From: Octopus vulgaris
Lineage: Eukaryota
Length of the DNA stretch: 64,000 nucleotides
Assembly: GCA_951406725.2 (NCBI GenBank)
Contig: OX597818.1
Coordinates: forward strand, 92,504,001-92,568,000
Reading direction: 5' to 3'
Shown here piece by piece: positions 25,201-62,659 of this stretch. The notes under the pieces are model-generated. The model did not search any database. It was given only the letters and a program-made list of their open reading frames with translations, and had not been told where the DNA came from. Position numbers and translations under genes: made by a program. Position 1 is the first letter of the stretch, and every line of letters starts with the position of its first letter.

Positions 25201-25615
25201 GGCGCATTTATTATCATTATTATTATTATTTAATATGGCACTGATTCACTGTCAACGTTAAATTATTAATCAAGCCTTTTAAATTATACCTCTTTGGGTT
25301 TGAAGATATTGAAATAACAGGTATTCATTCAAGTCTGTTATAGATATAAATTAAGTTATTGTTAATGATTTTCAATAGAGCTGGATTCTGCTTTAATTAA
25401 GAACATCAGCAGTAGAGAAATTTACATCAAATACAACCCAAGTCGTAAACAACAAGAAGAAATATCAGAGAAAGATGGCGTTGCAGGTTTTCTCGGAGTG
25501 GAATATGACGTGGATCGTCAATATATTTCAAATTCACTAGATGTAAGTTATTGTTTTACATCAAATTCCCATCTTGCCATTTAAAAGTGATTATAATACT
25601 ATAATTATATGTTAT

Positions 25616-27893: not shown

Positions 27894-27974
<81 letters not shown>

Positions 27975-34271: not shown

Positions 34272-37200
34272 AATTTCACGGATTTCACCCAAATTTGACG
34301 TCAATGTTACTTAGTTTGGTTTGAAATAAAGAACTTGATTAGCTTAATAATCCTAACTTAATCCCGGGCAAAGCCGGCTTATACTGCTAGTTATTGTTAT
34401 ATTGAAATAAGCCTTCCCCTTCTCCAAGATTTTGCACTTCATGTTGTAATCCATGGTTATTTCCTTGCCATCAAACACTTGTCGTAGCACAGTAACCTCA
34501 AGTGGTTTGGGTGCAAGGGACATAACTTTGGAGAAATAGCTCATTCAGTTGTCTCTTAGACCCGTGTTTCCCAAATGTAGACCGAGGATCCCTGTTGGTC
34601 CTCAAAGGCAGTACTGGGGTTCCGTGAACATGTTAAGCTAACAGACCTTTCAATATCCTGGTGTCCGTGGGAAAATTCATTTAAATAAAAGAGGTCCTTG
34701 GTAGTGAAAAGATTGGGAACCATTGCCCTAGACTATGTTTCGTCATTATCTTAGCACCAACAAAATAAAAGTGTTTCTGTTATAGATAACTGTCTACCCA
34801 AAGCAGAGTGTCAGTGAAACATCTTTTAACTTTCTCAAGGTCTTTTAACTGACTGTTAGCTTAATCATAAGAGGAATAGCTGTGTCCCATGACACTTCAG
34901 TGCATGTTTGAGCGGGGTTTAACCTAGTAATAGACCTTATACTGGACTGGAATGCTTGTACATGCGTGCATTCCACTAAAGTCACCAATAGCGCCTAATC
35001 TGTGGAGGCACATAGCCTAGTGGTTAGAGCAGCGGACTGGAGGTCGAGGGATCACGGGTTCGAATTTCAGACCGGACGATGTGTGTGTTTATGAGCGAAA
35101 CACCTAAACTCCACGCAGCTCCGGCAGAAGGTAATGACGAACTTCTGCTGACTCTTTCGCCACAACTTTTTCTCACTCTTTCCTCCTGCATCTTGCAGCT
35201 CACCTGCCACGGACCGGCGTCCCGTTCAGGTGGGGAACCTATACGCCAAGGAAACCGAGAAACCGGCCCTATGAGCTAGTCATGGCTTGAGAAGGAACAA
35301 ACAACAAATAGCGGCCAATCTGGGTGCAACGTTTCTCTACATGAATTCTGAGCAGGTCTCCGTTCATAGTCGCTGTACGGGATTATATAGTTGGATGGAG
35401 CACAGAAACAAACGACCACAATGATTTATGTAATTATTTATAAAATACGTTATTATAGGAAATAAAGGGAACGAAAAAAACAAGACAGTTTCGATTCAGA
35501 GATAGGTGACTGGGAACATTGGTTTGTCTAGTACTTGAAGTGTTACGCCATAGACTACTCAAACTTAATATTCGGGTGTCAAATTTTACTGTGGGGCGAA
35601 GGATTAATATTCGCATATGAAGGCAAATTTGCGATGATCTGTTGAGACAATATTTTACTTGTTAAAAACATTACACAACTAAGCTATTAACTTCTGTGTT
35701 GTTGTAAGCGTTTTTTTTTGTTTTTTTTTTATGCGTGCATATTAGGAAAACGAAATGAGAATTGAAATACTGGGTTAAAACTGTCGTATCGATTGTTTGT
35801 TATATTTTTGGGGCGGTTTAAACATCAAGAGACAGTCATGGAGAATAGCGACAACTTCTAAAATGACGATGGTAGAAACGTGGCAGCGGCTGAGTGTTTA
35901 ACAATTAACCATTTTCATTAGATAGATAAAATCTTGAAAATTAAGCAAATAGTCGACTATAAACAGATTTATATAACAAAATCCAAAGACCTAGTACAAT
36001 AATATGTACGGTAAATTATCTTTGATCTAAGAATGCAGTGGACGTTGTTGAACACTTCCATAAGTATGTGTCTTCTGGATTAGATAAGAGAATTAATCGA
36101 AGGTTCATACTGGTATTCCAAACTGCACAGTGGGTTATCTTTTAAATTGTTGTTAACATAAATAAATCTATTTCTCTTCTGATAACAGGACTACAACTAT
36201 AATATATTTGATATGCTGTATATTGTGACTAAATATCATATCTGCTAGTAAAATCTCATACTAAATAGTTGGAATAATTTTCCATAAAATGTTATTAAAA
36301 TAAACCATCATGTTCTATTTTCTCTTCAAAATTCGCAGGCAGTTGATGGCTACTTTGTACACTTCTTCACTCCTGATTCCTTACCAAGTCTTTCAAAGCA
36401 CATCGTATTTATGCTTGATGTCAGTGCATCAATGTCTGGTCGTAAAATTGAACAAATGAGCGAAGCTATGGAAAACATCCTTGATCAACTCGACCCAGAA
36501 CTTGATAAATTTCTCATCGGTAAATTCAGTAGTGGCGTTTCGTGGATGAAGGACGAGTTTTTAATAGCAAACAATCTTAACAAAAATTTAGGCAAATATT
36601 ACATTAAGAATCTTCAAGCCACTGGAAGTAAGTTAAAAAAAAAAGTATTATATTTGTATCGAATTTTGTTTATCAGTGCTTTACAATCTATCAATATTGT
36701 TAAATTTTGCTAGATTATATTAGGGAAGAAGACGCAGGGTTAGCTTTAATTCCATTACCGTGAGTTCATGGATATATATAGTTCTTCAAATTATCGGGAA
36801 AGTTCATTTTTGTTACATACTTTTTTTTAGTCCTTAAATGATAATTTTATATTCCTTATCCAGAAGATAAGGACGAAGCTGTTTTGCTAGCTTACTTCTT
36901 TTTAACTCTCATATATATCATGTTATAATATGTTAGTGTGATTGCTGGCAGACGTTGAAGTGCCAACAGTTCCTTTTGAAGTTGTGATGAAGTTTCGTTG
37001 TATTTAGCCACAAACCAGCTTTGCAGTAGCCGTCATCAACTTACATTCCCAATCTAATAGTTTTCCTCTTCAGTATGGCATCTTTTGTCTTACACTCTAA
37101 ATATTCTTTTCTACTCTAGGCACAAAGCCCCAAATTTTTTTGGGGGGGGGGGGGGGGCAGTCGATTAGATCGACCCCAGTACGCATCTAGTACTTAATTT

Positions 37201-37445
37201 ATTGACTCCGAAAGGATGAAAGGCAAAGTCGACATCGACGAAATTTGAACCCAGAACGTAGTTACGGGCGAAATACTGCTAAGCATTCCGTCCAGCGTGG
37301 TAACAACTCTGCCAGCTCGCCACCTTCTACACTCTAAATATTGAATTAACTTTTATTCAGAATGTTAAAATGTAAGGTCACTATTTGACAATGGTCCTTC
37401 ACGTCCCTATTTTAAAGCTCTTATTACTAAGTACTACAGTCCTAA

Positions 37446-37518
<73 letters not shown>

Positions 37519-38046
37519 GAGTGAGAGAGCAGTGACACTGGAGTAAAATATACGAAGCCCAGTATACCCGTCATGACTACCCGTCTGATAAGGGTACACT
37601 AGGCACATGTATCACAATCATATGTGTTTGACATGGTGATCTCATATCAAGATAAACAGCACATGATCTTGCAGGTGGGGCCCAGTTATAATTTCTTCTG
37701 GTCGAGTAACCAATCCTGCACAAAATGTTCCTGAATAAGAGTTGTTTAAGGATGTTGAATGATACACCCATGTTTCCAGAGTTGAATTAATCCAACCCCA
37801 AAGAATCCCTCTCAACACATGGCTATGATGCTCCCCAACTACTTCTGCTCATGATCAGAGGTGCACATATCGTCAGCCACTAAGGGACATGCTCAACTGG
37901 TTAGGGTCAAACAAATGACAAGCAAATCTGTGGTATTCAGCAGAATATTTACTGTAGCCCGTCTTTTATACAAAACAATGTACATGATAACACTTCCAAT
38001 CAGTTAAGATAAGAAGACACGAGAGCCACTGCCTGGTACTGCATCA

Positions 38047-38128
<82 letters not shown>

Positions 38129-41100
38129 GAACTTTTATCTTGAACTCACATTTTGCTTAAACATTTTAAAATAGTTCCACATTTTAACATTTAATGATTA
38201 AATTCATCTTTTCATGTCAAACGATTTAGTTACGATTAACTTTGAATTATACGTCTGTGATGCTTTCCTGTAAAGTTTGTATTAATGATCCTAATTCCTT
38301 ATGAGTACAAACATTCTGTTACTTTTTTCTGAATATGTAATTTTACTGTTGTCTCAGGTACAAACATTAATGCTGCTCTCCTTCAAAGTGTAGAGAAACA
38401 TAAAGCAACTTCAACCCCTACGAAGAAAAGTATTATCGTATTTCTTACTAACGGATATCCAACAGAAGGAGTCACAAAACTCAAAGAAATCAAGAAAAAT
38501 TTCAGAGAAGTCAACGAAGAGATTTCATTATTCACCCTTTGTTTCGGAAGAAAATCTATCAATAATTTTTTTCGTGAGCTTGCCACAGAAAACGGAGGAT
38601 TTAATAGGAGGATCTACGCAGACTCTGACAGTAAACTTCAAATTGAAAATTTTTATAAAGAAATATCTAACATTTTATTAAAGGATATTACGTTTGTTTA
38701 CTTGGATGATGCTGTTAATATTAGTTCTACATCATTTAACAACTACTTCAAAGGATCAGAATTGGTTGTTTCCGGTGTTTTGCCGCAGAATAATCACTCA
38801 ACCATAAATGTGAATTTAACAATGACAAACCACTTGGGGCCAACTATGGAAAATTTGGAGCTAGAATTATATAGAGATGACTTTACTTCAGATGATGGTT
38901 TTTCGCAAAATTACAGTTTGACTAGTATTCAGTCATTTTCTGAAATTACTGAAAAGACTTATGCTTATCTCACTTTGAGACAACTTCTCATGGAAGACAA
39001 AACAAATGAAGTGCGTTATGACATTCTTAATTTAGCTCTAAAGGTGAGTAAAAAGGATATCATTATCAATTACATTTTTATTTTAATATTTTAAGAGATA
39101 ATATGGTTTATTTGTTACTAGTTATCGATATCAGTCAATGTCTGATAAATGTGCTTTTATTTTTTTACTAATTTCACTTATATTCCTGCGTTCATGTTGG
39201 GCACCTCATGAAAGTTTAATTTGGTCTGATCGACAAGAGTACTTATTTTTTAAATCTGGTAACTGTTGTATCGGACTCATTTTGCCGAACAAGTAAAATT
39301 ATGGAAACAACCTATACAAAATGAAACTGGTTGCCAAGCAGTGAGGTTGAGTTAACAGAAATAGAATTCAATACATACATACATACATACATACATACAT
39401 ACATACATACATACATACATACATACATACATACACACATACATGCATACATACATGATGAACTCTCCTGTCAAACAGGACTGTGAGTGTTCAGATTTTT
39501 GCCGAACGACCTGCACAAATTATTTGTTTTATAGCGATCAAATGAGCTGTATATTAGCTCACTCCATCCGTCAAATTGGCGTTGCCTGAATAGATGCACT
39601 GTGTACCATTTGCCAGATGTCGAAGTGATCGCAGAGAAACGTGATAAGAAGTGTTTTGCTCAAGAAAACAACGCACTAGGTCTAGGAATTAAAACCAGTT
39701 ATCACTCCTCCTCCTCGACTCTCTCGTTGCTGATACGTGATGCGAAGGAAGCCATCATTCCGACTATTACTTTCACCAAGACTAAACGGGCATATCCTGT
39801 CTCCTTAAGCGTTCAGAATAATTTTTCCATCGTCTTGACTTAACAACCCTCATCGTTTGTTTTTACTGTTTTGTTCTCCTTGTTCTGTCTTTAACTGTTT
39901 TTACTTTTTTTATTGTTTTTACTGTTTTGTTCTCACTGTTCTGTTCTTGTTACCACTTTCACCCTCCGCAAAAAGTCCCAAATTTTATTTAATTTGCTTC
40001 GCGGAAAGGACTGTTTCAATGAAGTCGCGTCTTGTCCTTACCTTCAAAACGCGGAGTAGACAAAACAGGGACAACTGAAGAAGGGGAATATTCTATATGT
40101 TTTATGTCTCGTTTTTCTGGGGGGTTTTTCTCGTTGTTTGAAAAAAGTTCATTTCTATGTTTTTGTTTTTATGTTTTCGTTTCTCATTGTGTTTAACGTT
40201 TTTTTTTTTATGTCCTGTACCCATATATGCATGTATATATACATATATATGTAAGTATGTACATATATGTATGTATATATGCATATATTTATAAATTATT
40301 TACATTATAAAATATACAATGTCGGTTATAAAATATAATGATATAAGTCACTAGTTAGTACTCTCCTCTGATATTTCAATATTTCAAGATAAGCACCCCT
40401 TCTTCAGAAAATTTACGAGAAAAGGTGTGGAAAGCCAACATCTCTGCTCTGTAGTATGTGTGTATTATTTTTGTTCAATAAAAAGTTACAAAAGCAAAAA
40501 TCATTACTCGCGGTCCAAGATTTTGCGCATTTCATTTAGTCCCATGCAGGAAACTAACTGCTTTTGAGTCCCTGTTACATACATACATACACACATACAT
40601 ACATACATACATACATACATACATACATACATACATACATACATACATACATACATAAGACTGTGGCCTAGATCATAATTTCGATACGCGGATCGGGCGG
40701 CGCTTTTCGACATCTGACGTGTGGCACATCTGTGCACCCTTAGAAGCAGTGTCGATTTGATAGAGAGTGTGTGCTTATGTGAATACAAATATTTGAGCGC
40801 TATAAACAAACCATCTGTGTGGTGGTTTAGCAAGAGACTACAGAACACTCATCTGTCACCATGAGTTTGCGCGCGCGCGTGTGTTTGTAGAGATGAACAA
40901 ATATCATGGATCAACTGGGAAGCGGAAAGGCAACTAGGGTGGATGGCGCAGCACTGCACTCTTAACTTTACAAGCTTTTTGTCTGTTGTTGGGAGCAGGG
41001 AAAGTTACCACAGAATTTCCGCGATGCTGTCATCATTATTCTGTATAAAAACAAGAGAGAAGTATCTACTCCAGCCACAAGGTTATAAGCTATCTCTCCA

Positions 41101-44013
41101 TAGCAGACAAAATCCTTGCCAGAATACTCATCAACAGACTAAATGCTCACTAAGAGCTCTACCGACATTGTTTTTGTTCTCATCAAATGCCAAAATTGAT
41201 AATGAAGTTGATAACATACTGGCCAATGCAAACAGTAATTTCAACAGTCTGTACAATGGTCCGCTGAAGAAAATGACTGGAAACATTGTAAACACACAGT
41301 CGTGTAAGATTGAGAGTCGTAGATCATTTATTTGTGCCCCTAAAAACCCCTTGTGTGGCTTCATCAGCGCTATCTTCGATTCATCCGCAGCATCCACTGG
41401 AGTGACTTTGTCAGCACTGAGGTCCCAGAACAGACAAAGAATCTGCCACAACGAAACAACTCTGCTGAAGGCACAGTTACCTTGGGCAAGGATGGAGTAT
41501 CATCGACTTTCTAATATCAAGCTCTATGGCTAACTTTCCTCTGGTTACTGTGATAGAAGAGTACCAAAGAAGAAGTTCAAAGTCTCCCTGAAGGAATCAC
41601 TTATTGCCTGCCACATTAATCCCCACCTGTGTCCTGTATTTGTCGCTGACTGTGAAGCCTGACATCTCATTCTGCTCTGGACAACAACCATTTTTGTGGA
41701 CACTCGCAGAACCATCGAGAGAAAATGAGGGAAAACAAGTATACTACGACCAATTCTAGCCAACCAACCCTCCAGTGTAGTCTTTCTGATCATGCCTGCT
41801 TGTCTCGAATTGGACTCGTTTGACATAAGCAAGCCTGAAAAAGACGTGAACATCCCACTCCGTACCTCTTCGTACACAAAGCCAATCCAGGATACGGACC
41901 GAAACTGTTTGTTTACGAAGTGATTCCCAAAACAAACACAATTTTATGAATTTTTCGCAGAATATCTACCTAAACTTGATATCAAATCAAAATGTAATAC
42001 TCTAAGTATATTTAGTTCTTCTTTATAACATCAATGACGTGGTATCCCTATATTAGAGCTTAATAACAATATTTGAAGGTTTATTACAACTGTAGAGTCC
42101 ATTTAATTTAGATAATAGTCCTTAAGATATCTTACTTCAAGATAAATACTACAGTAACTGGTCTATGCGCTATGCATGATACATAGAAACATTTTAAGGC
42201 GTAGGCAGGCTGTGTGGTAAGAAGTTTGCTACCTAACTACATGGTTTCAGGTTTAGTTTCACATATATACGGTATATATATATATGTGTGTGTATATATA
42301 TATATATACACACACACACACTCACACATGTTGAAAAGATAAAATTACATCAATTATTTTCATGTATTGTTTTCTTATTAATATTACTATTGTCCTAAAA
42401 CTAATATTCTTGTTTTCACAGTATAATTTCGTAACTCCATTAACATCAATGGTTATTACCAAATACAATGTGAACGAGGAACTCTTTGAGAAAGGTAATT
42501 TTATCATTCATACCATTTTAATGACAAGCTCCTGTGGTCATGATAACGAAATATTTAAACTGAGATGACTTTAATATATACGTCTTGTTGAAATGAATTT
42601 GTTATGATTGTTTAAATTACAAAATCTAAAATTATATATTATAGGTTTTATGTTTTGTTTTGTTTTTATCTTGCTTTGGGTTTTTTTAGATTTTGTAAAT
42701 GCGTCGGTTAATTCATAAAATACGATGAAAGTTTTTATGTGATATGTTTGATAAATTATCCAACATTCTGCTTTTAAACTTTTAAAATTTGTAATAAATG
42801 CACAAGATAACACGAAATTTCCGATATATAGATTTCAGAACATAATAAGCATAAATTTATTCATATATATAATATCTAGAAAATTACATTATTGTTTATA
42901 TACTTTAAGCAACGTACAGTAACGTTTAAAGTATTATCTATAAACCTCACCATAGCTACAATCACATCAGTGTACCACTGTTCTTCTCTACGCTTAGGGT
43001 ATGATTGTCATAAGGACATCTTTGAATGTTCCTTTGGTTCATCTATGAAATCTTGTTGAAAGTCATAAGCAGAGATCATAGATATTATCACATTGTGTCT
43101 GGGTATAAATATATAACTGAAGAAAGCTACCAAATAGATAGGCATGGCAACTTAAACCAGCTCAAGGGATCGTGGTTACAAACAGCAGGTTGCTTCTCTA
43201 CAATACATAACCACTCTATCCACATCTCAACGATCTATCTCATCAAATTTATGTTCATCATATCAAACATTGACAGCAGTAAAGTCTGACTAACGACTGA
43301 GAGATAAGCGACTTAATAGTATTGGAATAAAAAATTGATGGTTTTCAATAATGTTAGATTCATAAATCCTCCTTCACAATTTCTTTATTTCTCCTCTATT
43401 TTTCTTTTATGACCATTGCGCTCCTTTCTTAATGAAACTTCTCTGAAGCGGAAAAGAAATATAGTTGATGATAAGATATAACTGAATTATACTTCCTGCG
43501 CAATGTAGCAAAGACTAATTACGTAGTATATTCTAAAAATACATAATACTGCATTAATCGTATTTTAGACTGATCCGGCAAACATTTTTAGAATAATCGC
43601 TATCTTAGTATGTAACATGTTGTACACCCAAAATAAGGAAATCTTGTTATTGTTAAGTCCTCAATCGAAACCAGCAAGGAAAACAAACAGGTCTATACAA
43701 TTCAGTTATATATTGAAAAATAGGATAAAGTTTACAATGATGGCAGTACAGAGTTGATGCAAAATAAATGAATCAATAGTCAAATACTGGACAAAGTAAC
43801 ATAATCACCAGAGTCATGAGTCAAACAAGAAGATGTAGGTTCTTGATCACAGTGATTTCAATGTCGATGATGACGGTTGACGAATGGTCTTGGCTGCGAG
43901 CGTAGTTTTAAAAGCTATATAATCCAAAGTCTAAAATAATAATTTCTCTGATCCGAGGGAAACAAACAGGAGGTAACTCTAAGGCATCACTTTTTTCTTT
44001 GAGATTAATTGGT

Positions 44014-44079
<66 letters not shown>

Positions 44080-45201
44080 TATATAGTGACTTCACTGGTT
44101 CACAACCATTCAATGGGGTAAACATTTTCAATCCAAAGATAACTAAAACTTTATTATTACAATATCATAATTAAGAAAAATACATTCTCATAACATTATA
44201 TCTATGCAAGTATTTAAAAAATGGTGAAACCACTTTCTCTTCTAGTACAGTTTTCTTTATATTTTATTATTTCATGGCATAAATTATATTTTGAGATTAA
44301 TCATAAGTTCAATTTTCATATTTCTCTTCCTTTGCAGAATACCTTCCTTCACGTAAGTATGTTCAAATTTGGATTGCTTGAAACTCGAATAATATTATTA
44401 TCTCTTTCATTCATAAATCAATTTAAGTCATTTATAAAACAGACAACTTATTTTATTTCAAGTTTGTAGCTTAAGATTTTTGCTTGTTCATCTTTATTTT
44501 GCTTTTTTGCATGTATTTTAGTTGTAACAGTCATGAAGCACAAGACCAGCTTTTATAGGGAAGTGGTATCGGAAAACCAATTAACTCTAGTGTATTAATG
44601 GAACTTATTATATCGAGCCGGTGGAGATATTAGATGAAGTTTACACTATAGACTCGGTTGATAGCCAGATACAACCTTTTTTACATAGACCCACAAATCA
44701 GCAATGTAGGGAAACTGAAGTAAACCGTAAAAGACTAGTTCATAACACTACGCATAATTTGCATAATTAAGGCTGTTATCAACTAAATTGAAGCTGTGCT
44801 TGTAGAGTTAAATTCTGAACAGGCATTCTGGGCCGAGGTCTTTCGGTAATTGTTCATAATTCTTTAAAGTCCACTGAAAGAGGTGACTGAAGCAACACCG
44901 TGGTCGAAGTCGAGAATTTCTCCAGTGTCAGCCATACACTCATGTAACCCAGTAAGAATGAAAAGAAGAAGAAGAAGAAGAAGAAGAAGAAGAAGAAGAA
45001 GAAGAAGAAGAAGGAGGAGGAGGAGGAGGAGGAGGAAGAAGAAGAAGAAGAAGAAGAAGAAGAAGAAGAAGGAGGAGGAGGAGGAGAAGAAGAAGAAGAA
45101 GAAGAAGAAGAAGAAGAAGAAGGAGGAGGAGGAGGAGAAGAAGAAGAAGAAGAAATAGAAGAAGAAAAAGAACAACAACAACAACAACACTAACTACTAC
45201 A

Positions 45202-51500: not shown

Positions 51501-54500
51501 ATTGCGCTACTTGTTGAAGAGAAATTACAATTTAAGAGAACAAAAATGGTGGAGCAAAAGAACCAAGGTGGAAACGACGCATTGAAAGGGACATAATGAC
51601 TTAGTGGCTGACAATAAGTGCATCTCTGGTCAGGAGCAGAGGTAGTGGAGGAGCATCATAACCATGTGTTGAGAGGACTTCTTTGGGGTTTGAATAATCC
51701 ATCTCTGGAAACATAAGTGTTATGGTCATCATCTTTAAACAAACCTTATTCAGGAACCTTTTAAGCGGGGTGGACTACTCGATCTGAAGAAAATTCTAAC
51801 TGCAAGGTCATGCGTTGTTTATCTTGATATGAGATCACATTTTCGTGCACATATGGCTGTGATGCATGTGCCTGATGTACCCTTATCATACGGGTAGTCA
51901 TGATGGGTCTATTGGGCTTCGTACAATATCCAGCAGTTTAGTTTTTATTTCCCTATGTACATTGACAAATCCCAACAATGAATGACAACAAATACAAAAC
52001 TTTATATCAAAATTCTATTATATTTAGAAGAAACCCAAGCCAAAAAAACAAACCTCTATGAGGTCGAATTGTTTGCAAAAATTTGTGTCGAATTGTCTGC
52101 AAAATATTGTGTCGAATTTGCCAAATTCACACGATATTTCTTTCAAATGTAGGTATAATGTTTTCGTAGAATATCGCGTAATATTGGCTTTTTTTTTTAC
52201 TTAAATCAGAGAATATAGCACCGTAGAAATAAGTTCCAGTTTGAAGTACATAGACATACTCGACGGAATTTCATTCTTAAAAGAATAGCTGAGTAATACG
52301 TAATACCTAATCTATCTCTTCTGATAAAATAATTAGATACAGTTGATCAGGAGGCTCATCTGCAATAATCAGGGATCTTTAATCCTAAACCAACTATACA
52401 ATATTGTTTATATGTAATGATTATTCTTCAAATATATGTGAAAATAATTATTTATATATTTCGCATTTTCATATCCCTATAATATGTTTATTGCTTTTTT
52501 CAGGATTTGAGAATCAAGGTAAGTAGATAATTATTTCATAATATATTTAAATTCATAATGCTGCATTTAATTTTTAAAATTCATCAAAATTTATAAGTAA
52601 ACAAGCCTGATTATGGGGTTAACAAACTCGCTATGCAACCGCGTAGTGAGACTGAACAATTTTTCGGGTTCAGCCCCACTGCACGGTACCTTGTGCAAGT
52701 GTCTTCTACTATAGTCCCAGGTCGGTCAATGCCATGTCAGTGAATTAGATAGAAGGAAACTCTAAAAATATGTCTTTCTATCTGCATTTGTCCCCACCAC
52801 AGCTTGACAACCAGTATTGTTTTCTTTTCATCCCTGTAACTTAGTCGTTTGGCAAAAGGGTCGATAGAATAAGTAGTAGACTTTAGAATAATCAATGGGA
52901 TCAATTTGTATTTAATTCCTCTTTTAAGTCAGTGCTCCAGTACGGTTGGAATTCTATGAGTAAAACAAGTAAAAGCCAAAATATGAATCAGCATATACCA
53001 AAAGACACACTTGTATCTATGGCCCATTGAATAGAAATGAAGATTCTCTTGTCTTGGCTGAAATACAGCTGAAGATCTTTTTGTGAAAGATCTGCAATGG
53101 TTTTCTGAAAATTTTTAAACTTTCAAAGGGATCTCGAAGTCCTATCGTTTGAATAAAAGAATATATTTATAATTAAGTGAAATACATTTTAATATTTTAC
53201 ACGTGAAAAAAAGAAGGTGCCAAGCTGACAGAATCGTTTGCGCGCCAGGCAAAAATGTAATGAGTTATGAGCCCAAAATTTGGTCCCCCTTGTTCGGGTC
53301 TTTTCTCAACAACATCATAACTCCACGGGTCATGGCGTTGAGAATTCCCCCGTTCTCCTCCCAGCTGATGTAGACATGCACCACAACGAATGAGGCATCT
53401 GCACATGCACATGATGTTGCTACAAGCCTCTGAAATCGAGTTAACGCGTGCTGTAGGTATGCGTCAGGGCGGATGAACAGAGAATCCTTTTCAAAAATTT
53501 CCCTTTCCTCTCAGGATAATGAAGGTGAAGTTAAGTAGTTTGTGTCTTGTTGTAGAGCACTGATCTCCAGATAACAGTTGGGTCTTTGAAAAAAAGTGAA
53601 AAAACTCCTGCCTAATATTAGTCCCAGAAACTATGTCTCAATGGCCGCTCGGAATGAGTTATTATGTATATGAATACAATAAAGCCAATCTTTATTCTGA
53701 AGATTATTTAGTCAAGATGGAACGATTGTGTTCATCTTCTGGCAAAATAGTAAAACGCAGTTGCTCAGAAAATTCTAAATAATTGTATCTGACACCACTC
53801 TTTTATTTAGTTATTTATTTATTGTTATAACAATAACAAAAAACAAAAGCCAGAAAAATTTTTTGTTGCAGTGTCCATCCTCGCCAGTCACCTACCTTTC
53901 AACAAAATTGCTGGAAGGAGGGGGCAGTACTTTCCTCTCCACCCTCACCTTTTCAAGTCTAACTTGAAAATAGTCGATGAGGATTTGGTCTAAGGGGAAA
54001 GTATCTTCCTTCAGTCCTTCCAACCTCGTCCATCATACAACCTCTTTCGTCATAACTACCACATAGAAGAAAACTACTTTCCCTTCCCGGCTAAAAGAAG
54101 GCAGCAGAGCGATCTTCTCGGTGGAATCGGCTGATAACCGGATCTGTCCTACATACATCAGGAACTGTTCGAGAAAACTCCGTCAGACAGCAGTACCTGG
54201 ACACTGGACGAATCCATGCAGACCGATTTCGTCACTCTGCGCTAATCTCAGTTCTTGTCCACTTGGAGGTCTGGACAAAACTAGACCCCAAGCAATTTAA
54301 GCGGTCTTTTCGTCCATCACCCCACGACACTGTTGTTTAGCATAGCTCTGCTTCCCCAGATGCCGAGCTGCAAACTTCTTTTTAATCTTTACTCCTGTCA
54401 CCGCTTCGTACTTCCTTAAGTTAGTACTGATCACCTTGATTTCCGAAATATTCGACACTTCTACAGTGACGTCCACCGCATAAGCCGAAGCAAACATTCT

Positions 54501-57500
54501 GGAGCCTAGTTAACGCGGGATGCCCCTCGAAACATTCAACTTTCTTAGTAATGGCTCGAGAGCCAGCACCGACAGAAAAGGCGAGACTGGGCAACCTTGA
54601 CGGAACGAACGTGCGATGCTAATCGATTCCGATAGATGGTCAATTACTTTTACCACCGAACATTGCAGCGATCAAACCTCTGAGAACAGGACCGAAACTA
54701 GCTGCCGTGAGCCTAGCCTCAACGTATTGATGATGGACCCAATCTAAAGCTTTTTATTGATCCAACTTGATCAGGGCCACACATATGACAGGTTCCTTTC
54801 CTACCCTCTCTCTGATGTAGCATGTGTGCTGGGGGTTGTCGTGGATAGATCTGTTTGAGATAGTACAGTCTGCGCGTCACCTACCAGATTATCGGCAACA
54901 AACTCAACCTCTTGTCTAACACCTTGTCCAAAGTCTTTTAATCTACATTCAGCAAAGTTATGGGCCCTCTTGTTCGGTTCTTTTCTCAACAGTATCATAA
55001 CGCCACGGGTTACAGCATTGGGAATTCCCCCCGTTATCTTCCCAGTTGATGTAGACACGCACCACGAGATCACGCAACAAGTCTGACATATGAAAACAAA
55101 GCTCCAAGGGCAGACCACCCAACCCCAGTGACTTCTCTCTTGTGAAGCTTATCATCCCGTTCTTTATGCCAGCAGCTGTTATCAGCATTTCACAGAACTC
55201 CGCATCCCTGGCCTAAAGGTGTGGCATTCCAATGAGGTAAGAGGTGAAATCCATCCCGTTCCCAACTCACCTCGTACTCCGTACAGTTCGGCAAACTTCT
55301 GTTGAATTTCTGCACACATCTACTAAAATTTGAGCAGCATGCGCCCGTTCTGGACCGTCAAAGACTGAATTATGTCTTTGTTACCACGTTGCAATTCTTC
55401 CCTCATCGAACGACTTTCCACCCCTTGTGTCTTAGCACATGTGCCCTAGCTCTGACAACACAACCTTCGTGTTTGGCATTGAAATATTGAACAAGAATCA
55501 ATCTCGCCGCCACCGTCCCTCATGTAGCTTCCTAACTAGGTCTGCCTCTAAGACTATATTTACTAAACCTTACTGCCTTTACTCTAATAGCCCGAGGGCA
55601 AAACAATGCGTTCATACACATACTCGACGGACATTCGTTGTTCTAAAGAATGCTTAATTAATTTGTGGTGCTTAAGCTAACTCTTCTAATCGAAGGATTA
55701 AATACTTTTGATCAGAAGGTCCATCTGCAATAATCAATGATCTTCAGTCCTAAACTATCTATACAATATGGTTTGTGTTGGTTTTTATTTGTTATTCTTT
55801 AAATGTATGTGAGCCTAATCATTTATATATTTGATGTTTTCATATCGCTATAATACTTTTATTGTTTTTTGCTTTTTCAGCGATAGTGATACATGGTAAG
55901 TAGATAATTACTTCATGTATTTATATTCATAATTTTGCAATTTTATGAAAGATTTATTTATCAATTTTCAACTATCACCCTGCTCAGTTGTCTGGTTAAC
56001 AAACTAGCTTTACAAACATCTGTTTTCCAGTTCAATCCCACAGCGCGGTACCTTGTACATGTGTCTTCAACTATAGTCCCGGACCAGCTAATGCCTTGTG
56101 AGCGAAACTGATAGATGCGCGTTCGTGCGCGCGTTTGTGTCTTTGTGTCAGCGTTTGTCCCTACCACAGCTTGACAACCGATATTGATTGCTTTACGCTC
56201 CGTAATTTAGTCGTTTGTCAAATGGAATCGAGCAATATATTTTTAATGTATCCTTTAAGGCAGTGCTCCAGCATGGCCGGAACCTTATGAGTGAAACAAG
56301 TAAAAACAAAAATACGAATCAGCATACACCAAAGACACACTGGTATCTATGACCCATTGAATAGGAATGAAGAATGTTTTGTCCTGGCTGAAAGTCTGCT
56401 GGAGAGTTTTTAGTGAAAGATCTGCAATGGTTTTCTGAAAAATTTAAGCTTCCAAAAAATTCGGGGATCTCGAAGTCTTATCATTTGAATGAAGGAAAAT
56501 ATTTTTAATTAACATTTTTTAATATTTTACATGACTACAGTTAATAATTTGGTTAAAGACTGCGGTTAATAATTCTTTGGGTGTGTGATAAGTAGCTTGC
56601 TTACGAACCACATGGTTCCGGATTCAGTCCCACTGCGTGGCACCTTGGGCAAGTGTCTTCTACTATAGCCTCGGAAACGGAAAGAAGCCCGTCATATATA
56701 TGTATATATGTCTGTGTATGTGTGTGTGTCTGTGTGTGTGTATGTGTGTGTATGTGTGTGTGTGTGTGTGTATGTTTGTGTGTCTGTATTTGTCCCCCCC
56801 CCAACGTCGCTTGACAACCGATGCTGGTGTGTTTACGTCTCCGTAACTTAGCAATTCGGCAAAAGATCCCGATAGAGTAAGTACTAGGCTAATGAAGAAT
56901 AAGTCCTGGTATCGATTTGCTCGTCTAAAAGCGGTGCTCCAGCATGGCCACAGTCAAATGATTGAAACAAGTAAAAGAGTAAACTAACATATGGATTGTC
57001 TCTATGCAATAGGAGATCAAACCTCACTCGAAACAGCAATAACTTTAAACACAATAAAGCTTGTATCATGATAGGATATTGGGTGTTTTGAAGATCATCA
57101 TCCTTCAAGTGCCAAAAGCGACTCGGGTATCTGCGCATAAGGGGATGTTGCTACAAACCTCCGAAAGTGAACTAATGCATACTGAAGTAACTGAATAAAA
57201 ATTTAGTGAGACTGTGTAATGGCAGATGTCCAATCCTTTTTTTTAAATGCCTCTCAAGTTACCGATGATGCAATCAAATAGTTTGTATCCTGTTGTAGAC
57301 CCCCCGGGGCTCCAGACAAAAATTGGGGCTTGTGAAAAGAGCGAAAAAAGTCCCGTCTAATATTAGTCTCACAAGCTGTGTCTCAATGGCCACTTAGTGT
57401 ATATGTATGCAATAGTGTAATTTCTCTTGAGGGCCAACCTTTATTCCAAAGGTTATTTAATCAACATGGAGCGATTGCATTCCTCTTTCTGCAGGAGAGT

Positions 57501-58408
57501 AAGACGCAGTTGTTCAGAAAATTCTGTATCTGGCAACACCATGTTTTTGTTTTGTTTTGCTGTTGTTTTTTTTTTTTTTCTTTTTGTCATAACAACGAAA
57601 AAAGAAAAATTAGCAGCAATTGTTTTTGTTATAGCAAACAGTCCGCACTATAATTTCATCGTGTCCCCCCCCACACACACACACACAAACACAAACACAC
57701 GCGCACACACGTACATGGACACGTACGAACATACACACAAACATACACACATACACACATCTGCAAATATCTCTCAAAATATATCACATAAATCATTTCC
57801 TCATTTTGTGTCCTAAATACTTAAACTCATTAGTGACACATAGACCGCAAACTCATTAGTAACACATAGACCACAAATTATGGTAACATATGTCTAAACG
57901 CATACGTTAACATAAATATATTTACATTTGGTATAAACTTTGATAAATTATGGTGTTTCGGTCTAAATTGCCCCAAGCAATCAGACAGATAATTTTGAAG
58001 TTACTTTTAGTGGAATCATGACCCATTCAAATATGGAGTTATTGTTAACTGAGATGTATCCATGTATGGGTGGCTTGTCTCGCATCCTTTGGAGATATTT
58101 GTTCAGATAGCGTTTAAAGATGATGGAATCTTTTTCATTTCTTTGCTTATTCAGAAACCTTTTGAGCGGGGTGGACTACTTGACCTAAAAAAATTTCTAA
58201 CTAGGCCCCCGCCTACAAGGTCATACGCTGTCTATCTCGATATGAGATCACCATATCGTGCACATATGATTGTGATGCATGTGCTTGGTGTACTCTTATC
58301 AGACGGGTAATCATGATGAGTATTTTGGGCTCCGTATATTTGTACTTCTTTGTCACTTTGACGGCATGCACTGCTCTCTCACTCAATAATAATAATAATA
58401 ATAATATA

Positions 58409-58480
<72 letters not shown>

Positions 58481-58495
58481 TACTATTACTATTAC

Positions 58496-58543
<48 letters not shown>

Positions 58544-58557
58544 TTTTATTATTATTA

Positions 58558-58599
<42 letters not shown>

Positions 58600-60508
58600 C
58601 ATTATTATTATCATTATTATTATTATCATCATTATTATTATTATTATTATACCTTGATGTAGTACCAGACAATGGTTCTCATGGCTTCTGATCTTAACTG
58701 ACTGGAAGTGTTATCATATGAATTGTTTTGTCTTGGTATAAAAGATTGGCTACAGCAAATATTCGACTCAATAGCACAGATTCAATATTTTCATTAAGGA
58801 CATACTTATATTCCAAGCATTTGTTACGGACTCTTTCATGAAATAAAAACTATTCCACTAGATCATATTATATAGTAGATTAGGAACCAAAATATAAAAT
58901 AATTTTCTACAACATAACATAACAGTTGACCATATTAGTATGGTATATTGTCAACTGATTTTTGGAACAATATTGGAATTATTACGTTTATATATTTGTT
59001 TTGCAAGATTTTTGATGTGGAATCGTGTGTTGAAACAGATATTGTTGTATTTAGGAATGGTCATTTTGCCAGTTTAGCCAATAAAAACACACGCACTATA
59101 TATTTGGTGTTACTTTGCTTCAGCGCTATTTATTTTTTACATTAATCTTAATCATATTTCGTCCAGAGTTCTTTCGTCACGCTCCTGTGACCGGATCAGT
59201 GGTCCTTTGCTTTCTTCTGATGCGGTCACAGGAGTGTGACGAAAGAACTCTGGCCGAAATAAGATTAAGATTAATGTAAAAAATAAATAACGCTGAAGCA
59301 AAGTAACACCAAATATATAGTGCGTGTGTTTTTATTGGCTAAACTGGCAAAATGACCATTCCTACATACAACAATATTGGAATTATTATTTTCTAGATTA
59401 ACGGAAATATTCAAAATTGTATATTTTCAAAACTATGTAATAAATCTGTTAATTATTTTACGCATTTACGTTAACATCAATATTTTTAAAATTCCTATTT
59501 TCATAAAAATATGAAATGTTTATAATTTTTACAGATTGTACCTCAATGAGTGTGTAGATTTTTCATAACCATAAAACACACACCTAGATAGCATTGAATT
59601 ACAATCGAGATTAATTTGCTTGTAACGCTTTCAAATAGACACACATTTGTTTGCGAGTGTACGTATGTATGCATTTATGTATATGCACAACATAAATATA
59701 TATACTTCTGTTTCATGTTCATGCACAAAAAAAATGGGTTTACCTATAACTATTCAGTGGTTGTTTATTTTAAAGTATACGTTCAAACTAGTTAATGACG
59801 AAAGACTGTTTTATGAAATTTAATTTACATTTTTTTTTTTTTATTATTTCATTATTTTTTTCATTTTTCAGTCAAAGATCAAGAACCGGAATTTTGTGAG
59901 TACAACAGCTTCGTTGCTTTACTTCCCTATATATATAGCATCACTAATATCTGAACACATTTTTTTCAATAATATTGATTACTACATTACACAATGCATA
60001 ATATTGCAAAATACTTTTGAATCCCTGAAACATACAAATTACATAGTACTCGGTGTATCGGTAACGTTTGGTCTATTTCAGTTTTCAATCCACATTTCAA
60101 ATTAGTTATTTTCTCTATACTAGTATAATATTAATAACGTAGTGGGCGAGTGTTCGACAAATAAATCAAATTTGACTAAATAGGAATCACAACAATATGA
60201 ATAATTTGTCAAATATAATATACTCCTTACGAACATATATGTATATATTCCAAATGATATTTAAGAACTCTAACATAAAAAAGTATTCCTCGAAAATGTA
60301 TAGTATAGCATATCAAACATCACAATATATAAATATTTTCTTGAGGTTAATATAAACACGAGATGCTTCATTTTAATGATATCATATACGTCATAAATTC
60401 ATAAAATTTTCATATCGATTTCAAAAACACACCGAAACTTTGAGTAAAACTTTCATTCATAGTGGAGTATATGTCTTTCTATGAATGTGTGTGAGTGTGT
60501 GTGTGTGT

Positions 60509-60554
<46 letters not shown>

Positions 60555-60884
60555 TGAGTGTCTTGTGTGTGTGTGAGTGAGTATTTTGTTTGCGTGTGTG
60601 TGTTGCGTTTGTGAGTTTGTTTTAAATATATATAGCGCAGGAGTGGCTGCGTGGTAAATAGCGTGCTTACCAACCACATGGTTCCGGGTTCAGTCTCTCT
60701 GCATGACACCTTGGGCATGTGTTTTCTGTTGTAGGTTCGGGTAGACCAAAGACTTCTGAGTGGATTTCATAGGCGGAAACATGAAGAAGCCCGTCATATA
60801 TATTCATGTGTATGTGTGTGTGTGGCTTTGTGTTTATCTCCCCACCATCACTTGACAACCGATGCTGGTGTGTTTGCGTCCCCG

Positions 60885-60933
<49 letters not shown>

Positions 60934-62209
60934 TGAGTTTGTTTTATATATATAGCGCAGGAGTGGCTGCGTGATAAGTAGCTTACTTACCAACCATACG
61001 GTTCCTGGTTCAGTCCCACTGCGTGGCACCTTGGGCATGTGTCTTCTGCTGTAGGTTCGGGGAAAGAAACACAAAGACACACACACACGCACACACACAT
61101 GCGTAAACAACCAGAGAAACAAATGGAAAAGGGATAAGTAACATAAAGAACGACCCTTCATCAGTTGTCGGCTGCCTAAATACTCCTCATTTCGAGCTTT
61201 GAACGACAATATGAGTCTTCGAAGGCAGCTGCTCCCACAAAATCCAAAATAAATTTGGGGATTTATGGAGGGTCAATGATGGTAACAAACGATAGTTAAG
61301 TATGAGCAACGAGAGAGAGTAAAGGAGAAAGTGGGGGAGGGAGAGAGACAGATAGAAAACGGTGAAGGGGAGAAAAACGGAATTTTCAGCACACACCTAA
61401 TTTAATATTATTTTATTCCTGCTGGTATAATACTGACAGCGTGGGTAATTTTTTGTTTTTTCTTGGAGGAGAGGACTTCAATCAAATTTCATTCGATTCG
61501 GATACCTGTATTATGAATAACTTCTTGAATGTAATATTTTCATTAAGGTCATGCATTTTTTACGAAATCTATCATGACATACAAACAATTCCACTAGATC
61601 ATATATTGTAGAATAGGAACCAAAATATAAATTTTCTTCAATATAACACAACATTTAACAATAGTAGTAACGTAAATTGTCAATCTATAATATGGTAATT
61701 ATTATTATTATATAGATTAACATACATATTGATGGTCTATATTTTCAAAACTATATAATAAATCTGTTAATTATTTTATGCATTTACGTTAACATCAATA
61801 TTATAAAGATTCCTATTTTCATCAAATATTCAATTTTTATAACTTTTACAGATTTTTGCCTCAATGAGTGTGCAGAAATTTCATAGGCATAAAACACACA
61901 CCTAAATAGCATTGAGTTAAAATCTGTATTCATTTCTTTATAGTGCTTACAAATGGACATGCATTTCTATCCGAGTGTGCGTATGTTTGCATTTATGTAT
62001 ATACACAACGTAAATATATATACTTCTCTTTCATGGTCATACCACAAGAGATTATTTACATATGAACTATTCAGTGGTTGTTTATTTTGAAGTATACATT
62101 CAAACTAGTTAGTAAGGAACGGTTGTTTTATCAGAATTAATTTACATTTTTTCTGGTTTTTTATTTCGTTTTTATCATTTTTCTGTTGAAGATCCTGAAG
62201 CGGAAATTG
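11214..62209 (+). CDS. ITIH-like secreted protein (signal peptide - VIT module x2 - vWA - ITIH core - micro-exon linker). Multi-exon, 3' end probably outside the window. Model: join(11214..11291,21505..21662,22461..22571,22673..22923,25379..25542,27520..27677,30648..30758,30850..31100,32702..32862,36339..36627,38358..39043,42422..42494,44338..44352,52504..52518,55881..55895,59878..59895,62192..62209)
   Basis: All junctions are GT-AG with compatible phases and no in-frame stop. ITIH hallmark motifs: [124 protein letters not shown]. The micro-exon part is less certain than the core. Confidence 0.9.
11632..12926 (-). mobile_element. Near full-length degenerate mariner (~1.3 kb)
   Basis: TAcga..TIRs; transposase remnants [48 protein letters not shown]; frameshifted. 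Confidence 0.9.
13973..14345 (+). mobile_element. SINE family A
   Basis: Full head-to-tail match with the other copies. Confidence 0.88.
14451..15420. repeat. Long inverted repeat, ~360-bp arms (14451-14815 / 15065-15420), ~250-bp spacer
   Basis: e.g. attggtcagttgaaatttaaaaacaaaagaccagct vs agctggtcttttgtttttaaatttcaactgaccaat. Confidence 0.9.
16097..16484 (-). mobile_element. Internal mariner fragment nearly identical to 12001-12385
   Basis: Same sequence, no TIRs. Confidence 0.9.
16940..17440 (-). mobile_element. Degenerate Tc1/mariner-type transposase remnant
   Basis: [29 protein letters not shown] motif. Confidence 0.75.
18593..19115. mobile_element. Non-autonomous pogo/Tigger-like DNA element inserted in (GATA)n
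   Basis: Perfect TIR TAccgtaaatcctcgagtata / tatactcgaggatttacggTA, with (GATA)n on both sides. Confidence 0.85.
19290..19511. mobile_element. Mariner-derived MITE
   Basis: TIRs tacgagagggtgctgaaaagtttctgg / ccaggaactgttcagcacccccacgt; remnant of transposase C-terminus on the - strand. Confidence 0.75.
20530..21115 (-). mobile_element. Head-to-tail trimer of SINE family C
   Basis: Three ~175-bp units starting tttctttac(t/a)acccacaaggg; only the last carries the tRNA head. Confidence 0.85.
21505..21662 (+). CDS. VIT module copy 1, exon a ([52 protein letters not shown])
   Basis: tttcag| acceptor, |gtaagt donor, 158 nt, paralogous to 27520-27677. Confidence 0.85.
21970..22405 (+). mobile_element. 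Tc1-like 3' remnant, partly shared with the paralogous intron (30395-30607)
   Basis: [14 protein letters not shown] (WPPNSPDxNPMDY-like), [17 protein letters not shown], ends gcactctgta. Confidence 0.75.
22461..22571 (+). CDS. VIT module copy 1, exon b ([36 protein letters not shown])
   Basis: ttgcag| acceptor, |gtaatt donor, 111 nt, phase 2-2, paralogous to 30648-30758. Confidence 0.85.
22673..22923 (+). CDS. VIT module copy 1, exon c (..[23 protein letters not shown]..)
   Basis: ttccag| acceptor, AAG|gttggc donor, 251 nt, VIT C-terminal motif. Confidence 0.9.
23260..23772 (-). mobile_element. Internally deleted mariner, present only in module copy 1
   Basis: [38 protein letters not shown]; tacgag/ctcgta ends; empty site at ~31385. 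Confidence 0.88.
24959..25210 (+). mobile_element. SINE family B, copy-1-specific insertion
   Basis: Flanked by atatgacactg / atatggcactg duplication; absent at the paralogous site ~32560. Confidence 0.85.
25379..25542 (+). CDS. VIT module copy 1, exon d ([33 protein letters not shown]..)
   Basis: caatag| acceptor, |gtaagt donor, 164 nt, ends in phase 0. Confidence 0.85.
26693..27143 (-). mobile_element. SINE (family B') interrupted by a ~155-bp insert
   Basis: Reverse complement of 35002-35306, with foreign sequence at 26942-27097. Confidence 0.8.
27520..27677 (+). CDS. VIT module copy 2, exon a ([35 protein letters not shown])
   Basis: ttttcag| acceptor, |gtaagt donor, canonical VIT motifs RFA and FISNFSM. 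Confidence 0.92.
30648..30758 (+). CDS. VIT module copy 2, exon b ([36 protein letters not shown])
   Basis: Canonical VIT GEVKEK..AK.IY motif, GT-AG, 111 nt. Confidence 0.92.
30850..31100 (+). CDS. VIT module copy 2, exon c
   Basis: 251 nt, GT-AG, FDISVNV/LTYQELL motifs. Confidence 0.92.
32702..32862 (+). CDS. VIT module copy 2, exon d
   Basis: aaacag| acceptor, |gtaagt donor, 161 nt, RVEYDVDR motif. Confidence 0.9.
34562..34725. mobile_element. hAT/Charlie-like MITE
   Basis: Termini ccgtgtttcccaaa / ttgggaaccattg, imperfect 8-bp TSD tcttagac / ccctagac. Confidence 0.65.
35002..35306 (+). mobile_element. tRNA-derived SINE (family B')
   Basis: A box tagcctagtgg, B box ggttcgaatt. Confidence 0.85.
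36339..36627 (+). CDS. ITIH-like vWA exon 1 ([35 protein letters not shown])
   Basis: MIDAS DxSxS, cgcag| acceptor, |gtaagt donor. Confidence 0.95.
37518..38046 (-). mobile_element. ~530-bp non-coding interspersed element flanked on both sides by (TTA)n
   Basis: Related copies at 51600-51925, 58155-58385 and 58655-58775. Confidence 0.75.
38358..39043 (+). CDS. ITIH-like vWA exon 2 and downstream core ([37 protein letters not shown])
   Basis: 686-nt open exon, ctcag| acceptor, AAG|gtgagt donor, many ITIH motifs. Confidence 0.95.
41160..41860 (+). mobile_element. Degenerate RTE-clade LINE 3' part
   Basis: [45 protein letters not shown] remnants. Confidence 0.75.
42422..42494 (+). CDS. ITIH-like exon [24 protein letters not shown]
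   Basis: Highly conserved FVTPLTSMV motif, cacag| acceptor, AAG|gtaatt donor, ends in phase 1. Confidence 0.93.
44338..44352 (+). CDS. 15-nt micro-exon (E)YLPS
   Basis: tttctcttcctttgcag|AATACCTTCCTTCAC|gtaagtat. Strong sites, phase 1-1. Confidence 0.7.
44963..45237. repeat. Compound (GAA)n/(GGA)n/(CAA)n/(CTA)n microsatellite
   Basis: Directly visible. Confidence 0.95.
45659..46543. repeat. ~440-bp direct tandem duplication
   Basis: Unit ttaagaaatttacaaatttacatatct...agaacagcccttc at 45659 and 46102. Confidence 0.9.
47060..51036 (+). mobile_element. Near full-length R4/Dong-clade non-LTR retrotransposon (RT + CCHC + restriction-like endonuclease), disrupted
   Basis: [77 protein letters not shown]. 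Single ancestral ORF 47173-50862 broken by ~3 frameshifts and a TAA at 48179. (TAA)n at the 3' junction. Confidence 0.92.
51085..51600 (+). mobile_element. Older degraded Dong-like N-terminal fragment
   Basis: [16 protein letters not shown] and ccaaggtggaaacgacgcattgaa (PRWKRRIE) remnants. Confidence 0.55.
52504..52518 (+). CDS. 15-nt micro-exon (R)FENQ
   Basis: ttgcttttttcag|GATTTGAGAATCAAG|gtaagt, phase 1-1. Confidence 0.75.
53870..55300 (-). mobile_element. Degenerate L1/Tx1-type LINE RT region
   Basis: Minus strand RQGCPVSP (54580-54606) and SAYAVDVTV (YADD-like) remnants. Confidence 0.7.
55881..55895 (+). CDS. 15-nt micro-exon (A)IVIH
   Basis: ttgctttttcag|CGATAGTGATACATG|gtaagt. Flanks are paralogous to those of 52504-52518. 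Confidence 0.75.
56580..56985 (+). mobile_element. SINE family A
   Basis: Match to the other copies. Confidence 0.85.
58385..58651. repeat. (AAT)n then long (ATT)n microsatellite
   Basis: Directly visible. Confidence 0.95.
58983..59375. mobile_element. Fold-back element, ~170-bp arms, short loop, long target-site duplication
   Basis: Same family as 800-1165. Flanked by repeated acaatattggaattatta. Absent from the paralogous site ~61690. Confidence 0.8.
59878..59895 (+). CDS. 18-nt micro-exon (D)QEPEF; alternative in-frame acceptor at 59872 gives 24 nt
   Basis: Long T tract, ttttcag|tcaaag|ATCAAGAACCGGAATTTT|gtgagt. Confidence 0.65.
60634..61060 (+). mobile_element. Two tandem SINE family A copies with duplicated upstream (TG)n/tgtgagtttgtttta flank
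   Basis: Heads at 60634 and 60954. Confidence 0.8.
62192..62209 (+). CDS. 18-nt micro-exon (Y/D)PEAEI
   Basis: tttttctgttgaag|ATCCTGAAGCGGAAATTG|gtgagt, paralog of 59878-59895. Confidence 0.65.
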
Positions 62210-62659
62210 GTGAGTACAAAAGATTCGTTGCTTTACTTCTCTATGCATAGCATAACTAATATCTAAGCAGGCTTTTTTTTCAATAATGTAGACTTCTTCG
62301 TTACACAGTGTATATATTACAAAAGACATTTGAATCCCCAAAACATACAAATTGCGTAGTACTCAGTATATTGGTAACGTTTGATCTATTTCAATTTTCA
62401 ACCCAGATTTTAATTTAGGAAAAGAAAGATGGACGACGGTTACGTGTGAGCAGCGAGGAGGGTAAAGAAAAAAGAGAGATGCAGATAGAGAACTGTGAAG
62501 GGGAGAAAAAAGGAATTAGAGAAAGGATGAGAGAGAAAACGATAAGAAGAGTAAACAGTAGAGGATAGAGTCGCATCAAAATGATTCAGATAAACAGCAT
62601 TCAATCAAATAATAATATAAATATATATATGCATATATATACATATATATATATGTATG

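Follow-up and report, generated by a model that had tools for sequence, protein, structure and literature searches.

The 64,000-nt window of Octopus vulgaris DNA analyzed here (contig OX597818.1, positions 92504001-92568000) contains the upstream part of an ITIH-like gene, designated D, in which the linker that follows the conserved core is encoded by an array of duplicated micro-exons. These micro-exons are real exons, they have multiplied by duplication of the blocks that carry them, and they have accumulated more amino-acid change than the divergence of their introns predicts. By analogy with human ITIH4, the linker may serve as bait for proteases, with selection having diversified its exons in bursts that followed duplication, a proposal to which we give about an even chance. 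The large array, the anatomy of its birth and death, and a controlled test of its rate of change are new here; four of the micro-exons, those discussed in an earlier note made from the sequence of the window, were already part of automatic gene models, which leave the array and its evolution undescribed. The tandem ITIH-like paralogs are named A to E, and a separate upstream paralog is named F; coordinates outside 1-64000 are window coordinates extended along the contig.

Micro-exons of the gene D linker

The linker-coding exons of gene D in the window, with the core exon that precedes them, are as follows:

42422..42494, plus strand: last exon of the folded core, ending in phase 1 (tblastn, spliced contigs)
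44338..44352, plus strand: micro-exon 1, 15 nt, phase 1-1, YLPS (spliced contigs of three of four runs; XP_036358745.1, CAI9723174.1)
52504..52518, plus strand: micro-exon 2, 15 nt, FENQ (spliced contigs of three of four runs; XP_036358745.1, CAI9723174.1)
55881..55895, plus strand: micro-exon 3, 15 nt, IVIH (XP_036358745.1, CAI9723174.1), sister of micro-exon 2 in the intron tree
59872..59895, plus strand: micro-exon 4, 24 nt, KDQEPEF (gene models), of which the earlier note took only the last 18 nt
62192..62209, plus strand: micro-exon 5, 18 nt, PEAEI, acceptor moved by 6 nt (gene models)

Contigs from three of four runs (two studies) join position 42494 exactly to 44338-44352 and then to 52504-52518, and a PEAEI-type exon is spliced, at the far end of the array, to 133376-133390 and then to the next large exon in three of four runs (three studies). 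The runs are only presumed to be RNA, none being recorded as such, and the evidence consists of the exon-exon joins themselves, i.e. splice products; one run yielded only paralog contigs at the upstream end and another no contig at the far end, neither of which counts as absence. Two gene models, XP_036358745.1 (RefSeq, Octopus sinensis) and CAI9723174.1 (GenBank, O. vulgaris), read YLPS, FENQ, IVIH, KDQEPEF and PEAEI in this order and in frame, and it is these gene models, not spliced contigs, that are the basis for 55881-55895, 59872-59895 and 62192-62209. The earlier proposal that four short segments of the window are exons is thus borne out, directly by spliced contigs for 52504-52518 and through gene models for the other three.

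The subsets of exons included differ between XP_036358745.1 (16 exons by the present reading) and CAI9723174.1. The latter runs genes C, D and E together as a single protein of 2709 residues, and the former may be chimeric, because its residues 1-200 match genes B and C better than D. A 12-nt candidate exon at 133700 (extended) was dropped, being missing from all three contigs that cross the junction. At the far-end junction, the final base of the preceding exon is different in one run, which would turn Gly into Arg, and two other runs have a synonymous substitution in the VQPT exon, both possible polymorphisms. The HGSDI exons (68701, 70970, 78544 and 130218, extended) have a weak GTCAG donor, and six sister copies have no GT; the O. 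sinensis model includes one of them and the O. vulgaris model none.

Growth, resizing and loss of the array

Self-comparison and alignment of the window identified these duplicated blocks and degenerate copies:

52246..53201, plus strand: duplicated block 1a, carrying micro-exon 2 (self-comparison)
55610..56531, plus strand: duplicated block 1b, 79% identical to block 1a at gap-free columns (self-comparison)
59382..60105, plus strand: duplicated block 2a, one copy of the unit amplified downstream (self-comparison)
61701..62418, plus strand: duplicated block 2b, 84% identical to block 2a (self-comparison)
59535..59549, plus strand: degenerate copy of the 15-nt family with a weak donor, in neither gene model, likely dead (alignment)
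61852..61867, plus strand: degenerate copy of that dead exon with 16 nt, a length that breaks the frame (alignment)

Multiplication through duplication of kilobase-scale blocks, as the earlier note had it, is evident from both pairs of blocks and from a nested array downstream, which continues for ~70 kb beyond the window with 23 further candidate exons (68471-133390, extended) and in which the unit of blocks 2a and 2b has been amplified by nested duplications as far as 130.5 kb. Both splice sites are present at 24 of the 35 donor-like sites; six lack the donor GT and five lack an acceptor. With four others, the candidate phase-1 exons of gene D number 28 (9-24 nt each, 513 nt together), besides dead copies, of which there are at least 11; every candidate live exon has a length divisible by three, and one dead copy does not. 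The number 28 is not firm, because identity reaches 99-100% between some of the downstream blocks, which may represent collapsed sequence or haplotype duplicates.

Exon length and splice sites, which had been thought to be preserved between copies, are not. In block 2a the acceptor lies at 59871 and both public models read a 24-nt exon (59872-59895), whereas in block 2b TG has replaced the corresponding AG, and the 18-nt exon 62192-62209 follows another AG that lies 6 nt downstream. The interpretation of these exons as a pair of 18 nt each with conserved splice sites was therefore rejected: only the reading frame is kept. Across the array, acceptor shifts give exons of 9, 15, 18 and 24 nt, alongside the dead copies.

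Genes A, B and C have duplicated micro-exons of their own and gene F has micro-exons, some families being common to several paralogs; gene E has a few small exons, and none that is duplicated was found. In gene B (-88362 to -88262 and -86511 to -86426, extended), pairs of micro-exons are split by introns of only ~53 nt, and a chimeric 15-nt exon lies at a duplication junction. Gene A (-189876 to -178368, extended) contains a tandem duplication of 5.9 kb whose identity reaches 99.8-100% and that is either very recent or an artefact of assembly.

Rates of change in exons and introns

Rates were estimated with a codon maximum-likelihood model in which branch lengths were taken from introns, for 10 families, 44 copies and 56 codons of four paralogs. 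The fit left out the 30-nt and 15-nt copies of gene B, the 9-nt copy of gene D, two 27-nt copies of gene A in a near-identical block, every dead copy, and codons split across exon boundaries. This tree-based fit is the main figure because pooling along a minimum spanning tree favors low intron distances. The nonsynonymous rate of the micro-exons is 2.90 times the intron rate (confidence interval (CI) 2.30-3.79; 2.6-3.9 times on dropping each of the 10 families), and the synonymous rate is 1.52 times the intron rate (CI 0.71-2.60). In 36 pooled comparisons there are 103 exon differences versus 35 expected, or 43 expected after correction for base composition, and 90 differences remain without CpG transitions. 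Core exons of the same genes serve as a control: in all six pairs their nonsynonymous rates are 0.39-0.63 times and their synonymous rates 0.63-1.47 times the intron rate, and exons at this locus are therefore not generally hypermutable. Deeper families that span paralogs give a nonsynonymous rate of 2.8 times and a synonymous rate of 1.6 times the intron rate (P = 0.18 for omega = 1), although, because of their overlap with the first set, they are no independent confirmation.

The contrast can also be seen within individual blocks. In the four blocks with AxxF exons, the 15 exon columns contain four changes, confined to two codons, and the 849 intron columns contain 37 (P = 0.0045). Four changes are reached in 20 of 835 intron windows; the dead exon homolog in the same blocks, as read from the alignment, is unchanged. 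Six copies with dead donors have no changes versus 0.3 expected, which gives them little power as a neutral control. The exons of blocks 1a and 1b (52504-52518 and 55881-55895, FENQ and IVIH, phase 1) match at seven of 15 positions, as had been counted, while the blocks are 79% identical across 877 gap-free intron columns; the exon divergence exceeds that of the introns (binomial P = 0.006; P = 0.016 with trimmed 300-nt flanks), and seven of 635 gap-free 15-mers (21 of 849 if gap columns are skipped) have equally low identity. The immediate flanks of this pair are indeed close to identical (91% over 43 columns), but they are splice signals, for which reason they were ruled out as a neutral yardstick, and identity is 78% further out. 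For the exons of blocks 2a and 2b, the count of 13 matches in 18 positions was correct, but the excess is not significant against 84% intron identity (P = 0.15), 83 of 505 windows being equally low. The claim that micro-exons diverge faster than their introns therefore stands for the aggregate and for the first pair, not for the second pair.

Several results weigh against attributing this excess to selection. Omega is 1.91, which is not significantly different from 1 (P = 0.094), and P falls to 0.027 only with the PEAE family removed post hoc; this family, the largest (14 copies), evolves at 0.9 times the intron rate. For gene D alone, the nonsynonymous rate is 2.18 times the intron rate (CI 1.40-3.21) and P for omega = 1 is 0.60; a uniform rate of 1.5 times is not rejected either (P = 0.35). 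Selection and a locally raised mutation rate are thus not formally separated by omega (P = 0.09 for omega = 1). Moreover, the first five exons differ at none of 29 residues between XP_036358745.1 and CAI9723174.1, with 13 of 576 different in the core, an identity that under a sustained 2.9-fold rate would have a probability, roughly calculated, of 0.009-0.042. The conservation of these exons in O. sinensis speaks against the ongoing arms race that the earlier note expected, and it goes part of the way toward the refutation that the note itself named, conservation of orthologous exons between species. Over a longer distance, the micro-exons of gene C differ from those of O. bimaculoides at six of 28 residues, and the core at 24 of 335 (P = 0.02); identity in O. 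sinensis and divergence in gene C together fit bursts after duplication followed by retention better than a continuous race.

Architecture of gene D and its locus

Five tandem ITIH-like genes are located within ~0.4 Mb on the contig and the sixth, gene F, is 2.6 Mb upstream. Gene D extends from 11214 to ~138700 (tblastn), and its closest protein is XP_036358745.1 (97% identical, labeled ITIH4-like). The order of its domains is VIT-VIT-VWA, with VIT followed by VWA as in ITIH proteins: Pfam identifies VIT twice and VWA once in XP_036358745.1, and VWA in the exons of the window. The best match of the core among PDB sequences is human ITIH4 (E = 1e-85), and the best Foldseek matches of the predicted structure are ITIH1 (E = 1e-49). 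The exons of gene D upstream of the linker are:

11214..11291, plus strand: first coding exon, with a hydrophobic N-terminus (tblastn, sequence)
21505..25539, plus strand: first VIT/hybrid module, four exons (tblastn; open frames in the exons translated; Pfam VIT twice in the ortholog XP_036358745.1)
27520..32862, plus strand: second VIT/hybrid module, four exons, an internal tandem duplicate of the first
36339..39043, plus strand: two VWA exons (36339-36629 and ~38360-39043; Pfam VWA, MIDAS motif)

The first exon likely encodes a signal peptide, as judged from the sequence by eye and not by a predictor. The doubled VIT/hybrid module, with open frames in those exons that were translated, is also present in the O. 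sinensis model; omega between the two modules is ~0.9, so that one of them may be released from constraint. The VWA exons are located in open frames 36288-36713 and 38333-39094 and keep four of the five MIDAS positions (DxSxS and T), the last Asp being replaced by Asn in both O. vulgaris and O. sinensis. The branch of gene D is longer than those of its nearest paralogs.

Other elements were noted at the locus and beyond. A LINE-type element with a reverse transcriptase frame of 687 residues (47155-50862) occupies the intron between micro-exons 1 and 2, and an inverted-repeat element at 59039-59377 (hairpin near 59116-59350), probably a MITE, has a relative at 799-1166. A more distant ITIH copy on the minus strand of C14 (~61.4831-61.4849 Mb) has its VIT-VWA core in a single uninterrupted match of 574 columns, and therefore is intronless and possibly a retrocopy.

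Position and chemistry of the linker

The match to human ITIH4 stops near residue 601, which is where the linker starts; the linker extends to the alignment column of the vertebrate DPHF motif, which we take to be the cleavage and bikunin-attachment motif of the ITIH1/2/3 type. DPHF is present in two of 27 proteins and in no octopod protein. All nine linkers are free of cysteine. The linker of gene D consists of 18-20% Asp/Glu and 6% Lys/Arg, versus 3-10% and 7-21%, respectively, in seven other linkers. The predicted structure of gene D has an ITIH fold with no secondary structure at residues 824-956. Thus, position and variability indicate a long, variable, unstructured region between the core and the C-terminal domain, with weak support from the structure, which was predicted from a shallow alignment with a mean pLDDT of 61. 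In the C-terminal domain, none of five octopod proteins has a match to Pfam PF06668; the top three ESM Atlas matches (scores 0.89-0.91) carry ITI_HC_C in 13-77% of their members, which is a lead only.

The octopod cluster is likely a lineage-specific expansion of ITIH genes, not a set of demonstrated ITIH4 orthologs. The proteins retrieved included no ortholog of gene D from O. bimaculoides, which is weak evidence.

Explanations for the diversified linker

In the protease-bait explanation, unequal crossing-over would copy blocks of 0.2-6 kb, each with phase-1 exons, and because of this phase each copy would lengthen the linker by 3-10 in-frame residues. An exon copy would then be resized or turned off by point changes at its splice sites, copies offering new cleavage-site residues would be favored and then held, and cleavage at any point of the linker would, as in ITIH4, lead to trapping of the protease via the VWA domain. 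The acidic, hydrophobic linker of gene D (AxxF, PEAE-I/F) would be suited to chymotrypsin-, elastase- or metalloprotease-type enzymes and the Arg/Lys-richer linkers of most paralogs to trypsin-type enzymes, so that protease classes would be split among paralogs. The earlier guess that the micro-exons are bait sequences fits their position, which corresponds to the ITIH4 bait: the ITIH4 report describes cleavage within residues 633-713, a protease-susceptible, bait-like region that is variable among species and is likened to the bait of alpha-2-macroglobulin, and subsequent trapping of the protease through MIDAS-dependent contact with the VWA domain (PMC7793589). It also describes ITIH4 as lacking the bikunin-attachment consensus (PMC7793589). 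As a wider proposal, which is tentative and somewhat unlikely in its entirety, the tandem cluster might constitute an evolvable repertoire of protease traps, with baits made of micro-exons that are born, resized and killed, positively selected at cleavage-site residues and recombined by skipping, and with paralogs and isoforms that cover different classes of host or pathogen proteases.

The bait explanation also meets with contrary evidence. Trapping by ITIH4 needs an intact MIDAS, although the MIDAS residues mutated in that study differ from that of gene D (PMC7793589), and gene D departs from the canonical motif by an Asn that is unique to it, other octopod proteins having kept Asp; gene D may therefore be a weak trap or a pure decoy. 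Low pLDDT is to be expected wherever a stretch has no aligned homologs. The octopod ITIH proteins form one clade with support of 1.0 (FastTree, 17 sequences, vertebrate ITIH4 not included). The evidence for exon skipping comes from O. bimaculoides models of paralogs and not from gene D itself: isoform models of two paralogs have linkers that differ by 5-11 residues, as skipping would give, and such isoform models rest on RNA.

Alternatively, the linker could be a weakly constrained spacer, in which selection acts on frame and splicing only and the excess of change is due to locally raised mutation in micro-exons richer in GC and CpG, hidden pairs of indels, mosaic recombination or underestimated intron distances. 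Such a spacer would agree with a model of equal rates (2.55 times the intron rate), which is not rejected, with a synonymous point estimate that is itself raised (15.3 changes versus 6.5 expected), with the many dead copies, with the composition of the micro-exons (43% GC and 4.6 CpG per 100 nt, versus 27% and 1.3 in the flanks), and with two of 12 exon pairs that align better with gaps, the last two of which also count against selection. It is at odds with the near-intron synonymous rate of core exons under the same analysis, the persistence of the excess after composition correction and removal of CpG transitions, the unchanged dead homolog in the AxxF blocks, the slow PEAE exons of the very same array, the uniformly frame-preserving lengths of the candidate live exons in the presence of a dead copy that breaks frame and, weakly, the six donor-dead copies; on balance we consider it unlikely, but not remotely so. 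The supposition that these segments arose through chance AG...GT matches within duplicated intron sequence or through errors of assembly, for which the near-identity of some downstream blocks could be cited, is extremely improbable and, as regards the reality of the exons, is refuted by the spliced contigs, by two gene models and by the identity of only 79-84% between the blocks of the earlier note.

Selection could also have diversified the linker for a role other than protease inhibition, such as binding or spacing within a secreted protein of matrix, ink, mucus or the reproductive system, in which copy number and splicing would determine the length. The altered MIDAS and doubled VIT module of gene D would suit such a role, as would the fact that the repeat amplified most is the conserved acidic PEAE, which looks more like a change of length or charge than a diversification of sites. 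ITIH-like proteins are present in a table of the O. vulgaris ink proteome, in which the two listed peptides match paralogs and not gene D (PMC10142993), and the VWA domain of ITIH4 also binds a virus capsid (PDB 9c4f). On the other hand, the linker occupies the position of the sole experimentally defined bait region in the family, the AxxF changes are clustered in the two residues before a fixed Phe, as they might be around a cleavage site, and diversification of a bait through tandem exons has a precedent in mollusc TEP/alpha-2-macroglobulin proteins (PMC7016707); a role of this kind seems unlikely, only slightly more so than the spacer.

Comparison with known systems and significance

Like human ITIH4 (PMC7793589), the octopus proteins possess a VIT-VWA core, no DPHF/bikunin motif, a long and variable linker after the core, and a C-terminal domain that may resemble ITI_HC_C. 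Unlike ITIH4, the octopus genes are a probably lineage-specific tandem cluster with linkers made from duplicating exons of 9-30 nt, and gene D has an acidic linker with 9% Pro (17% in ITIH4), two VIT modules, and an Asp-to-Asn replacement in its MIDAS. BgTEP2 of Biomphalaria has 12 tandem exons that are alternatively spliced in its bait/variable region (PMC7016707). As in TEP/alpha-2-macroglobulin, tandem duplicated exons diversify a protease-cleaved region of a secreted mollusc protein, cleavage of the octopus linker being supposed by analogy; in contrast to that unrelated scaffold with its thioester trap and mutually exclusive exons, the short octopus exons are chained in series (PMC7016707). 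The array also resembles the micro-exon genes (MEGs) of Schistosoma in its small symmetric exons, possible frame-neutral skipping and raised amino-acid change, but MEGs encode parasite proteins almost wholly by micro-exons, whereas the octopus array is one module in a conserved host protein (PMC4350168). The micro-exons of gene D contribute at most 513 nt in 28 exons to a protein of more than 1100 residues (XP_036358745.1), short of the majority that defines MEGs. No description of micro-exon linkers in cephalopod ITIH proteins was found in the literature searched, whose coverage leaves out most subscription journals and supplements.

The bait-and-trap mechanism of ITIH4 is known from mammals. 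An exon-modular bait position would provide a natural series of linkers on one scaffold, with which the antiquity of the mechanism and the dependence of protease range on bait sequence may be tested. The presence of live, resized and dead copies side by side makes the array a clean system for distinguishing selection from mutation in octopus micro-exons that outpace their introns.

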